Shown here piece by piece: positions 31,487 to 35,256 of a stretch of 64,000 nt of DNA. The number at the start of each line of letters is the position of its first letter. Positions within the stretch are counted from its first letter, which is position 1. A program made the translations under genes and the position numbers. This DNA comes from Escherichia coli (GTDB lineage: Bacteria > Pseudomonadota > Gammaproteobacteria > Enterobacterales > Enterobacteriaceae), in NCBI RefSeq assembly GCF_044324875.1, contig NZ_CP172187.1. The stretch is one strand, 5' to 3'. The notes beneath the pieces were generated by a model, which saw nothing but the letters and a program-made list of their open reading frames with translations, did not search any database and had not been told where the DNA came from.

Positions 31487-31524
31487 GGGGTTTGAGGTCC
31501 AGTGGAACGAAAACGTACGCTAAG
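31487..31524. repeat. Solitary 38-bp Tn3-family terminal inverted repeat
   Basis: GGGGTTTGAGGTCCAGTGGAACGAAAACGTACGCTAAG, close to Tn1000/Tn3-type IRs; GGGG outer end to the left. Confidence 0.6.
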
Positions 31525-31619
31525 AGAGTAATTCGTTGTTTTTAAATAGCTTAATACGTTGAATCCGGGAGAGTTTAGCCTTCCCGGATTAGATGCGGCG
31601 TAATCCCATTACCTCACAT

Positions 31620-32549
31620 TCAGCGATAAACCGAACGTGCAATGCGGGTATATGTATGCCTGACTCCGCGAATGGCAATACTATAAGCTAGGATGTTCTC
31701 CGGTAGTGCCATCCCCATATAGCCGGTATCACCAATATGGTGCAGATCGGCCCCTGCCATTTTGCTCATTAACGCTATTTGACGAATGGTGCTTATATCA
31801 GCACCTTCCTGGGACGTGCCAATAGCAGTCATCGCCAGTACACCATTGGCATGTGCGGTATCTATAAGCGATGTCACACGCTGCTGACTCATTCCGGGTA
31901 TCGTGCCTGGAGCCGGGATCAACACAATGTCTGCGCCTTGAGAGGCAAACCAGATAACATCCTCCTCGCTGATAATGCTGCTGCCACTTTCATGCGCCAC
32001 TCCAGCACCGTGCATTTTTCCGGTAATAATCACGGCACCATCCCCGATTGCCTCGCGAATATCTCTCGCTGCCAGCCCCAGAGCGCAATTGCTGACCCCG
32101 TTATTAGGATTACCTGTTAGCACCAGAATTTTTGCGCCCATATTAACTAGCTTACGGGCATTGTTAGCCGTTGCTGCCCGCCCTGATTTCATTTTCCAGA
32201 TATCGTCATGAGCAACAGCAAATTCAGGGTCTACGGCCTCCAGGTTCACACCAATGATACGGCCTGTCAGGCGTTGCAGTTCATGCAACGTTTGTTCTGG
32301 TGCAATACCTGCGGGTAATCCCTGAATATACGGATTTTCACTGTCAAACATATTAACCAGTAAAATATCTGCGCCCTGTGATGCAGCAAGTTCGGCATTC
32401 GTGACATTGTTCAGTAATGGCTGGGTAATCGCGATGGATTCGCTAACCATCACACGGCCTTCACTGGCACGAATAGCGTACAGAAGCCTGGTTTTATCCA
32501 TCGATACAAAATCGGAAGCACAGCAGTCCAGCAGCCGTTTATTGGTCAT
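31620..32549 (-). CDS. Enzyme-like protein of undetermined family, co-encoded with the PTS IICB gene
   Basis: 309 aa soluble protein with Gly-rich nucleotide/sugar-phosphate-like motifs; 4-bp overlap with upstream PTS gene. Confidence 0.45.
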   Translation of the reverse strand: MTNKRLLDCCASDFVSMDKTRLLYAIRASEGRVMVSESIAITQPLLNNVTNAELAASQGADILLVNMFDSENPYIQGLPAGIAPEQTLHELQRLTGRIIGVNLEAVDPEFAVAHDDIWKMKSGRAATANNARKLVNMGAKILVLTGNPNNGVSNCALGLAARDIREAIGDGAVIITGKMHGAGVAHESGSSIISEEDVIWFASQGADIVLIPAPGTIPGMSQQRVTSLIDTAHANGVLAMTAIGTSQEGADISTIRQIALMSKMAGADLHHIGDTGYMGMALPENILAYSIAIRGVRHTYTRIARSVYR

Positions 32550-33943
32550 TGAGCGCCTCCTTGCTGATTAACCAGTTCACTGATTTCACCCGCGATAATT
32601 TCTGCCCGGGTTCCTACAATGACCTGTAGCCCGGTATCTCCGCGTTTTACAACGCCCATGGCTCCGAGTTTCCTGAGTTCTGGCTCTTGAATCATGTCCA
32701 TGTTTGCGACCTCCAGGCGCAGACGGGTAATACAGGCATCAATACGCATAATGTTTTCTTTCCCACCCAAAGCGGCAAGATACGCCGTTGCTAAATCGGA
32801 GGAACCGGCAATAGCTGAAATGGTTTCCTCATTATCTTCTCTTCCTGGCGTAGCGAGATTAAAGCGACTAATAAAAAAGCGGAACAGGAAGTAATAAATC
32901 AGTGCCCATAAGCCCCCAATAGGTAGCATTAATAACGGATGTGAGGCCAGTCCGAATGACAGTACATAATCAATTAACCCAGCCGAGAACGTAAATCCAA
33001 GTTTAATCCCAAGAATTTGACACACAGCCATAGAAACGCCAGTCAGTACCGCGTGGATACCGTAGAGCACAGGCGACAAAAACAAGAAGGTGTATTCCAC
33101 GGGTTCCGTAATCCCCGTCAGGAATGTCGTCAGCGCGAGTGACAGGAATAACCCGGCGACAGCGGGGCGTTTATCTTTCGGGGCTGCGTGATACATCGCG
33201 AGGCATGCAGCAGGCAGAGCAAACATAAATACCGGGAAATATCCCGCCATAAATGCCCCGGCAGAGGGATCACCGGCAAAGAATCGGTGGATATCACCGG
33301 TCACCACGGTACCATCCGCCGCCGTAAAGGAACCGAAAACAAACCAGACCAGCGAGTTAACAATATGGTGCAAACCCACGACGCGAAAAAGAACGTTCAG
33401 TATACCGTACACAAAGGGGCCAACCGGGCCAGACGCTACCAGCCAGTTACCAATTGCATTCACGCCATGCTGTACCGGTGTCCATGCCCAGCCAAGAATA
33501 ACACCCAGCAGCAGGCAACTTAACCCAGTGGCTATTGGGACAAAACGTTTTCCACCGAAAAAAGCCAGATATTCCGGTAACTTGATATTATGATAGCGAT
33601 TATACAGCACGCCCGCCAACAACCCAGTCAGAATGCCAGACAGGACCCCCATATTAAGTTCAGGATTGATAGCCTGCATCACAGAAGTCAGTACCAGGTA
33701 ACCAATCGTACCTGCCAGGCTGGCGGCACAGTGATTGTCCTTTGCAACCCCCCCACTGATACCTATGGCAAACAGTAGTGGTAAGTTTTCAAACAGTGTT
33801 TGCCCTGCTTTCATTACAAACACAATATTGAAAACATCGGGCTGCCCAAGACGTAGCAGCAACCCGGCGACGGGTAATACAGCAATAGGTAGCATCAGTG
33901 CCTTGCCCAGGCGCTGCATGATGACGAAAAAATTCCCCTGCAT
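32546..33943 (-). CDS. PTS sugar transporter subunit IICB (glucose-family permease with C-terminal IIB domain)
   Basis: 465 aa polytopic protein; C-terminal IIB phosphorylation motif IDACITRLRLEV. Confidence 0.8.
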   Translation of the reverse strand: MQGNFFVIMQRLGKALMLPIAVLPVAGLLLRLGQPDVFNIVFVMKAGQTLFENLPLLFAIGISGGVAKDNHCAASLAGTIGYLVLTSVMQAINPELNMGVLSGILTGLLAGVLYNRYHNIKLPEYLAFFGGKRFVPIATGLSCLLLGVILGWAWTPVQHGVNAIGNWLVASGPVGPFVYGILNVLFRVVGLHHIVNSLVWFVFGSFTAADGTVVTGDIHRFFAGDPSAGAFMAGYFPVFMFALPAACLAMYHAAPKDKRPAVAGLFLSLALTTFLTGITEPVEYTFLFLSPVLYGIHAVLTGVSMAVCQILGIKLGFTFSAGLIDYVLSFGLASHPLLMLPIGGLWALIYYFLFRFFISRFNLATPGREDNEETISAIAGSSDLATAYLAALGGKENIMRIDACITRLRLEVANMDMIQEPELRKLGAMGVVKRGDTGLQVIVGTRAEIIAGEISELVNQQGGAQ

Positions 33944-34176
33944 AAATTCACCTCAGTAGTCGTTGTTCATTTTGCGCATGAGACAGTAAACCATCTATGT
34001 ACCATTTGTAGACCATAATGTTTTATGGCTAAAAAGACCTACTGATAGATAGCTGTTTTGTGATCTAACGAGCTTTATTTTTCTTCTGTGAGTGATTTCC
34101 AGGATGACAATGGACGCTCACTGGTTAAGAATTGGTATACAGAGATTGAACCAGATATAACCTGCTAAGAGGAACG

Positions 34177-34926
34177 ATGAAAAAAACTCCGCAACCCGAA
34201 TTTCATCTTGATGAATCCAGCGCGATGCCGCTGTATATGCAACTGGTTAATGCCATTAAGTTAGCCGTAGCGGAAGGTCGACTGCATCCTGGTGACGTTT
34301 TGCCGTCAGAACGGACACTGGTAGAGACGTTGAACATTGCGCGAGGCACAGCCCGTAAAGCATTGCAGCAACTGCTGGAAGAGGGCGTTCTCGTGCGTAA
34401 TCAGGGTTCTGGTACATTCGTTGCTCCACATGTACTTCAATCTCTGCCGTTATTGGAAAGTTTCAGTGAAATGGCCGTTGCCAGTGGTGGAGAAGCACAA
34501 AGCGAACTGGTCGGGTATCAGCGTCGGGCATCTGCGCCGGAAGAGCGTCGTGCCCTGCAACTGACAGATGGTAAAGATGAGGTTGTGGAGCTAACCCGAC
34601 TGCGGAAGATTAACGGTATTGCCGTTTCCCTTCAGACAGCGATTTTACCTGCGGCTCTGCTGGATAAAATCAGTGAACTGGATGAGTCGTTGTACCTGCA
34701 TCTGGAGAAGAAAGGCGCTCCAGTGCTGCGGGCGAGTCAGAGCTTCCGCGCAGTGCCAGTGGACAATAAACTGGCACACTATCTGAACATCGGGGAGCAT
34801 GAACCACTCCTGTTGGTAACCCGCACAGGCTTCACTCACGAAGATAAGCCGGTGGAATACACCCGGACATGGTGCCTGAATGATTACTATGATTTTACGA
34901 TTGAGCTACATCGAAAAGAATCATAA
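34177..34926 (+). CDS. GntR/HutC-family transcriptional regulator (winged HTH plus UTRA effector domain)
   Basis: N-terminal motif VLPSERTLVETLNIARGTARKALQQLLEEGVLVRNQGSGTFV; divergent from PTS operon. Confidence 0.8.
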   Translation: MKKTPQPEFHLDESSAMPLYMQLVNAIKLAVAEGRLHPGDVLPSERTLVETLNIARGTARKALQQLLEEGVLVRNQGSGTFVAPHVLQSLPLLESFSEMAVASGGEAQSELVGYQRRASAPEERRALQLTDGKDEVVELTRLRKINGIAVSLQTAILPAALLDKISELDESLYLHLEKKGAPVLRASQSFRAVPVDNKLAHYLNIGEHEPLLLVTRTGFTHEDKPVEYTRTWCLNDYYDFTIELHRKES

Positions 34927-35013
34927 GGTAATTTTTTCGCATTCTCCAAAAACGGTTTTTAATATACAAAAATCATTATTTATCAAATACATTATTTTAT
35001 GAAAATAAATGTT

Positions 35014-35256
35014 TTATGTGACCTTTTCGTCTTCCAGAATTTTATACACAGTGGAGCGGGCAATACTGAGTTGTCGGGCTATATCCGTTGCGCCAGTCCC
35101 CTGGCAGTGGAGCGCCAGCACACTGTTTCTGCCGATGGTGCGCCTGCGACCAAAGCGGATACCTTTCAATTTTGCTTCCAGTCTACCTTCATTCGTGCGT
35201 TCCAGTATTCTCTGTCGCTCGGCCTGGGCTACAGCCGACAGAATGGTGACCACCAT
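35014..35256 (-). pseudogene. tnpR: Tn3-family resolvase gene remnant (C-terminal 80 codons only)
   Basis: [39 protein letters not shown]...[18 protein letters not shown], close to the Tn3 TnpR C-terminus; no catalytic N-terminal half. Confidence 0.65.

Follow-up and report, generated by a model that had tools for sequence, protein, structure and literature searches.

The lactose transposon Tn951 is related to Tn3. Passengers of Tn3-family transposons have been described as genes for resistance, virulence and catabolite degradation (PMC7157771), and in the passage of PMC4549013 that deals with it (citing Cornelis et al. 1978) Tn951 appears as a plasmid-borne transposon of Yersinia enterocolitica which carries the lactose operon. 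In this study a stretch of 64,000 nucleotides of Escherichia coli DNA (contig NZ_CP172187.1; referred to below, at its full length, as the window) was analysed, the setting of which is an IncI1-type plasmid backbone, and attention was given to positions 31487-35256, where a regulated phosphotransferase system (PTS) sugar-uptake module lies between a Tn3-family terminal inverted repeat (IR) and the tail of a resolvase gene (tnpR). It is highly probable that this segment represents the left-hand 3.77 kb of a transposon which belongs to the gamma-delta/Tn1000 lineage of the Tn3 family, measures 7.3 kb when complete and has a sugar-uptake cargo, here intact; the working name TnX is used here for the 7.3-kb transposon. 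In the literature searched, neither a PTS or GntR passenger on a Tn3-family element nor the scar in IncI1 plasmids that is set out below was found described, in keeping with the remark in a first-pass annotation of this DNA that metabolic PTS passengers are not commonly described; sugar-catabolic passengers as such do have a precedent, however, in that Tn951 carries lac according to the description cited above.

The parent element was searched for by scanning metagenomes with a degenerate DNA pattern for a lineage-specific resolvase peptide, and two contigs were returned, one being the same IncI1 plasmid (L015) and the other (L016; OEPS010000045.1) containing a transposon in intact order. Window positions 31485-35256 aligned to L016 as a single collinear block with 92.45% identity, which extends from the IR across the whole cargo up to the breakpoint in tnpR. 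The L016 element is 7,291 bp in length, has a direct repeat of 5 bp (GACTA) on either side and consists of an IR, a DUF7916 gene, the PTS gene, gntR, a full tnpR (encoding a TnpR of 185 amino acids), a res region, tnpA and a second IR; the two 38-bp IRs match one another at 36 of 38 positions. The spacer of 163 bp between tnpR and tnpA is 79-86% identical to the res of Tn3, Tn1000 and sibling elements, and the tnpA gene (1,002 codons) has the DUF4158 and DDE_Tnp_Tn3 domains. The element is located in an enterobacterial chromosome, downstream of ompX and beside mntR, ybiR and ybiP. Because L016 aligns in one piece, the IR and the tnpR tail of the window come from one element, with the PTS module in the passenger position. 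The first-pass annotation had proposed such a Tn3-type layout and had suggested a search for an intact copy ordered IR-PTS-tnpR-res-tnpA, which is the order found in L016. Other searches for a full-length parent resolvase gave only the truncated form: tblastn against PLSDB returned only the same truncated locus at more than 92% identity to the tail, and a search of 5.8 billion proteins (>92% identity) likewise returned only the truncated resolvase, the matches listed all being of 140 amino acids or fewer and possibly biased against full-length proteins.

The passenger-side terminal IR of the window (38 bp, 31487-31524, plus strand; sequence GGGGTTTGAGGTCCAGTGGAACGAAAACGTACGCTAAG) has its outer GGGG leftward, as first annotated. 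It is identical (38/38) to the passenger-side (left) IR of L016, and matches the right IR of L016 at 36, the tnpA-side end of Tn1000 in plasmid F at 35 and both IRs of the window's intact Tn3 (at 22715 and 27664) at 31 of 38 positions; no further sequence within 12 mismatches of it was present in the whole 64 kb. The inner flank next to it (31525-31549; would-be last codons NNELLS followed by a stop) is part of the transposon and not of the cargo, and was also found in L016 (5455-5479) and in the Klebsiella remnant described below. This flank matched the tnpA-side flanks of Tn1000, L016 and two sibling elements (L019 and L020) at 13-14 of 17 positions, compared to 8-10 of 17 for passenger-side flanks. 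As the left end of L016 has the same IR and flank, the tnpA-like inner flank is native to the element; an interim idea, in which the IR and the tnpR tail belonged to different, incompatibly oriented elements, was ruled out by L016. The flank may be a conserved site of the integration host factor (IHF) type, or it may be the footprint of cargo capture by way of a recruited tnpA-side end. Counting this tnpA-end-like flank, the terminal repeats thus extend to about 55-60 bp.

At the other side of the segment, the 3' remnant of tnpR (35014-35256, minus strand) consists of residues 106-185 and the stop codon, with a methionine codon at 35256. These last 80 codons, correctly recognised in the first pass as Tn3-like, matched residues 106-185 of Tn3 TnpR at 66 of 80 positions (82.5%), the gamma-delta resolvase at 50 of 76 and the full-length L016 resolvase at 78 of 80. 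Similarity to Tn3 runs for 44 bp past the tnpR stop codon, to 34970, and this backbone DNA (34970-35013, minus strand) resembles the tnpR-bla spacer of Tn3; in the other direction nucleotide similarity to Tn3 stops exactly at 35256 (among thousands of Tn3 copies in PLSDB), with the breakpoint at 35256/35257. Fused straight to the tnpR remnant are 89 bp (35257-35345, minus strand) left over from another Tn3-family element, unrelated to the first, and made up of a 38-bp IR (35308-35345, outer GGGG at 35345) and 51 bp of inner flank. This IR agrees with that at 31487-31524 at 17 of 38 positions and is of a different subgroup; more than 1,700 plasmids contain it, and it resembles the tnpA-side IR of an element with colinear tnpR and tnpA (L021). 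It had been supposed that the par locus replaced the 5' half of tnpR, res and tnpA, and while those parts have indeed gone, it is the second-element remnant that adjoins tnpR, par starting only from about 35400. The window copy has neither res nor tnpA (the separate Tn3 being the only place with similarity to the L016 tnpA) and is unable to transpose on its own.

At the nucleotide level the tnpA of L016 is 94% identical to that of a widespread Tn1000-like lineage (L009, L019 and L020), 84% to that of Tn1000 of F and 62-73% to that of Tn3. The 3' half of tnpR stands apart as an allele of its own, with 77-80% identity to every other one, and the C-terminus of the resolvase is nearer to Tn3. The description of the parent as Tn3-like thus stands for the resolvase C-terminus, but the transposase and the IRs are gamma-delta/Tn1000-like. 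A mosaic of Tn1000-like tnpA and Tn3-like tnpR was also seen in other elements, for example L009, and a sibling on Salmonella plasmid pSAbAus (L019, 2915-10778), with a tnpA of 94% identity, has LysR, YdgH, hydrolase and major facilitator superfamily (MFS) genes in the same passenger position. On the Yersinia enterocolitica plasmid pYE854 (L020, 1-7545) a sibling Tn1000-like tnpR-tnpA pair is followed by an insertion sequence (IS) of the IS110 family and a sugar cluster of DeoR, mannose-family PTS and GH88 genes; no passenger-side IR was present within 7 kb, and it may or may not be a second sugar-carrying relative.

The identical IR and inner flank adjoin three unrelated outer sequences, namely ...GCTGGTA in the IncI1 plasmid, ...CAGACTA in the L016 chromosome and ...CTATAAC in IncFIB/IncHI1B plasmids of Klebsiella pneumoniae, and therefore that end has moved. 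In the Klebsiella plasmids only 31487-31608 has been kept (122 bp, 100% identity), which covers the IR, its inner flank and 59 bp at the start of the cargo and lies in an unannotated spacer; an example is found at 6001-6122 of p2723-175k (L008), and there are many similar plasmids. In most IncI1 plasmids, such as pEGY2 (L002), a deletion of 3,511 bp (31813-35323), with GG microhomology at the junction and its right endpoint inside the 35257-35345 remnant, has left the IR and 193 bp from the 3' end of the DUF7916 gene, a residual piece labelled in RefSeq as a partial 'haloacid dehalogenase-like hydrolase'. Because this deletion derivative retains part of the DUF7916 gene, the full form in the window is the ancestral, older state.

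Other explanations of the segment were weighed against a left part of TnX. The IR and the tnpR tail could be debris of two Tn3-family elements flanking a PTS module that belongs to the backbone or was acquired otherwise. Their nearest classical relatives do differ, the IR and flank being Tn1000-like (35/38) and the resolvase tail Tn3-like (66/80 compared to 50/76), the inner flank of the IR looks tnpA-side, and the same module occurs elsewhere between IS elements (L003) and, with no transposon, in chromosomes; L016, however, unites the same IR, inner flank, cargo junctions and tnpR within a single element bordered by a target duplication, and mosaics of Tn1000-like tnpA with Tn3-like tnpR are known in other elements such as L009, which makes two separate sources very improbable. 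It would also be conceivable that the window copy came as a fragment, by homologous or illegitimate recombination, and that the IR at 31487 marks no insertion in this plasmid. The accessory regions of IncI1 plasmids are rich in recombination, the window also has Tn3 and a TnAs1 fragment, and the right end has gone along with any target duplication, the right junction being fused to the other transposon remnant; arrival as a fragment is nevertheless unlikely, as the outer G of the IR is precisely where backbone similarity ends and the flanks in L016 and Klebsiella differ, which is the signature of a junction made by transposase. Last, the IRs at 31487 and 35345 are inverted, face each other and bracket the cargo, and with an intact Tn3 in the same window the 3.86-kb segment between them might be taken for a pseudo-transposon mobilisable by transposase in trans. 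This is hardly credible, since the two IRs agree at only 17 of 38 positions and belong to different subgroups, no matching 5-bp duplication is present (the left side reads TGGTA and the right side CTATT) and the arrangement from 31487 to 35345 was always in the same yagA-par context at all places inspected.

A number of observations do weigh against the identification of the segment as part of a sugar-carrying TnX. The right end of the window copy is lost, and with it any target duplication there. L016 is the sole copy found in intact order, and a single run (SRR1185960, labelled as a soil metagenome) is the source both of it and of two further assemblies (L017 and L018); its tnpA has a 1-nucleotide deletion near codon 61 in all three assemblies, and none of the copies found is demonstrably active. 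The empty target site of the L016 insertion had no match in E. coli genomes, and the host of L016 is not E. coli. Two scans of 100,044 species-representative genomes found no copy, and the full element was found in no PLSDB plasmid. With regard to the cargo, the DUF7916 protein resembles generic TIM barrels only, and synonymous and nonsynonymous changes in gntR are about equal relative to the closer copies in L016 and L003 (nonsynonymous to synonymous 16:15 and 16:14), making constraint on this gene less clear.

The captured cargo (31550-34938) comprises three genes and their regulatory DNA, its limits being drawn from comparisons with L003, L004 and L016. A copy of the module flanked by IS elements in a Logan assembly (L003) is 93.3% identical over exactly this interval (3,389 bp), and in L004, where the module sits in a chromosome between rbsD and kup, similarity is confined to the genes, at 75% identity. 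The spacing left beside the cargo is 25 bp on the IR side and, on the other side, 31 bp plus the 44 Tn3-like bp before the tnpR stop, spacings so small that the cargo fits tightly into the passenger position; the 31 bp between cargo and transposon backbone (34939-34969) are matched at 28 of 31 positions in L016, are absent from L003 and are not Tn3-like. All three cargo open reading frames (ORFs) are intact, and the three-gene module is conserved in Enterobacterales chromosomes. Against the chromosomal copy of 75-79% identity, synonymous changes in the three ORFs were clearly in excess (synonymous to nonsynonymous codons 127:38, 241:49 and 87:46), and the window cargo, as far as can be judged from its sequence, looks functional. 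Profile matches to all three products upheld the first reading of the cargo as a HutC-type regulator, a glucose-family PTS IICB and an enzyme-like gene.

The gene nearest the IR (31620-32549, minus strand) encodes a DUF7916 protein of 309 amino acids with a predicted (beta/alpha)8 TIM barrel and a full-length match to the family (Pfam PF25509; E = 1.3e-120, residues 7-309); no mention of this family was found in the literature searched. The protein is predicted to be, probably, a phosphosugar-processing enzyme. Downstream of the gene a hairpin with a 9-bp stem (AATCCGGGA...TCCCGGATT; 31562-31590, minus strand) was read by eye and is a possible terminator; it is kept in L016, L003 and the Klebsiella remnant, and was not called by a terminator scan, the promoter/terminator scan of the region being no better than shuffled controls. 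In Yersinia pekkanenii (L007, 6729-7658) a gene of the DUF7916 family, with 85% identity to the protein of the window, was seen without PTS and GntR genes, its neighbours being epimerase/dehydratase and aminotransferase genes, which hints at a wider metabolic role of the family.

The second gene (32546-33943, minus strand) encodes a PTS permease of 465 amino acids in the IIC-IIB arrangement, of the NagE (N-acetylglucosamine, GlcNAc) type and without a IIA domain. It scored 573.6 bits against a cutoff of 553.2 for TIGR01998 (the NCBI-curated model for GlcNAc-specific IIBC), and matched positions 3-468 of 648 of the NagE IIABC profile (NF007608; 556.8 bits, cutoff 1010) with no fused IIA. Relatives keep a length of 460-470 amino acids, so the protein is no truncated product and IIBC is its natural form. 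A GlcNAc-like sugar is the predicted substrate, on the basis of the NagE-type family match. The PTS gene overlaps the DUF7916 gene by 4 bp, and the two therefore look like one operon.

The GntR-family regulator of HutC/PhnF type (34177-34926, plus strand; 249 amino acids) gave full-length matches to the HutC-subfamily models PhnF, HutC and TreR, every one of them below the equivalog cutoff, and homologues with 94% identity carry the Pfam domains GntR and UTRA. Between it and the PTS operon lies a divergent regulatory region (33944-34176) with boxes which, by alignment, are shared even with the chromosomal copy, at 75% identity (ATGTACCA at about 33997, TTTTGTGATC at about 34056 and TAAGAATTGGT at about 34126), and with an imperfect palindrome at 34121-34154; this region would contain putative operators.

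By analogy with transposons of this family, the TnpA of TnX would act on both IRs to give a cointegrate by replicative transposition, and TnpR would resolve the cointegrate at res, leaving a target duplication of 5 bp. A TnX copy would have inserted downstream of yagA in an ancestor of the present IncI1-type backbone, and a later deletion would have taken the right IR, tnpA, res and the 5' part of tnpR (105 codons), the stump being joined to the other Tn3-family end; in most IncI1 plasmids the further deletion of 3,511 bp (31813-35323) would then have followed. From what is known of the respective families, the GntR/HutC regulator would repress the divergent promoters until an inducer is present, the IICB permease, fed by enzyme I (EI), HPr and a IIA of the host, would import and phosphorylate a GlcNAc-like sugar, and the TIM-barrel DUF7916 enzyme would turn the phosphosugar into a central metabolite.

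The gene order around the remnant is yafB' (truncated), yafA, yagA (an AraC-type regulator, 30503-31303), the remnant, a parB-like gene with parA (35480-36405) and impCAB. Positions 31300-35500 are 100% identical to the E. coli plasmid p135-2 (NZ_CP080262), from a chicken-faeces isolate. Searches located the full remnant as in the window on 5 plasmids of PLSDB and in 4 out of 5,426 complete genomes of E. coli, and 307 indexed blocks of draft assemblies contain the DUF7916 protein in exactly this form; the yagA-cargo-par-imp context was shared by 9 of the 10 locations of this protein that were inspected. At the tenth (L024, 4574-7373) gntR adjoins an autotransporter gene and not the tnpR remnant and par, a further rearrangement variant. 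R64 was uninformative as an empty-site reference, its yagA-imp region being organised otherwise (with ParM-type partition), and L010, in which similarity ends at 31481, was rejected as an empty site, an IS3-family insertion being located there.

The intact Tn3 (blaTEM-1, tnpR and tnpA, with both 38-bp IRs) occupies 22715-27664, approximately 4 kb upstream of the remnant. The 3' portion of a TnAs1/Tn1721-like tnpA is present at 28161-30020, its IR (GGGGAGCCCGCAGAATTCGG...) at about 29980-30017; this end adjoins the truncated yafB (ProQ/FinO), with a cysteine hydrolase gene immediately upstream. Tandem AACAAGAT repeats, followed by inverted copies, at 35405-35480, downstream of the parB-like gene, look like a par centromere, and the par locus from 35405 on is approximately 85% identical to that of IncFII(K)-type plasmids of Klebsiella.

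A wider proposal is tentative and, as a whole, rather doubtful: that TnX is live, or was until recently, and spreads an uncharacterised amino-sugar pathway (the NagE-like permease with DUF7916) among Enterobacterales chromosomes and, in the form of scars or of the complete cargo, among IncI1 plasmids of poultry E. coli and virulence-type plasmids of Klebsiella, and that its passenger-side end is a recruited, inverted tnpA-side end. If true, the recruited end would be a concrete footprint of the capture of chromosomal cargo by a Tn3-family element. Apart from this proposal, the regulated sugar-uptake cargo of TnX shows that such elements also shuttle ordinary carbohydrate metabolism between chromosomes and plasmids. 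TnX accounts for a previously unannotated scar downstream of yagA in a common IncI1 backbone (the lone IR and the 'haloacid dehalogenase-like hydrolase' pseudogene), as well as for the 122-bp remnant in many Klebsiella IncFIB/IncHI1B plasmids, and both scars can serve as markers for the order of events in plasmid history. For studies of what DUF7916 does, the three-gene module offers a compact setting.

Among known systems, Tn951 resembles TnX in having a regulated sugar-utilisation operon as cargo, and differs in that the operon is lacIZY and not gntR, PTS IICB and DUF7916, a comparison made by description only, from the passage on Tn951 in PMC4549013. The chromosomal gntR-PTS(IICB)-DUF7916 islands of Enterobacterales share with the cargo the same genes in the same order and orientation, protein identities of 82-88% and the conserved boxes of the divergent promoters, but have no transposon parts, the module of L004, for instance, lying between rbsD and kup. 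Tn3 and Tn2 (blaTEM) belong to the same family as TnX and share its gene order, the passenger lying downstream of tnpR; they differ from it in their IRs (31/38), their tnpA (62-73% at the nucleotide level) and their beta-lactamase cargo, which contrasts with the metabolic cargo of TnX. There is also a likeness in architecture to Tn1000 (gamma-delta) and its widespread relatives, such as those on pYE854, pSAbAus and pJBIWA001_3, which, like TnX, consist of an IR, a passenger, tnpR, a res spacer of 163 bp, a divergent tnpA and an IR, with tnpR reading toward the passenger-side IR, IRs matching at 35-36 of 38 positions and a target duplication of 5 bp. The passenger is a single ORF of unknown function in Tn1000 and LysR/hydrolase/MFS in the pSAbAus element, whereas in TnX it is gntR-PTS-DUF7916, and TnX is further set apart from the Tn1000 types by its own allele of the resolvase 3' half and by the tnpA-end-like inner flank on its passenger side.

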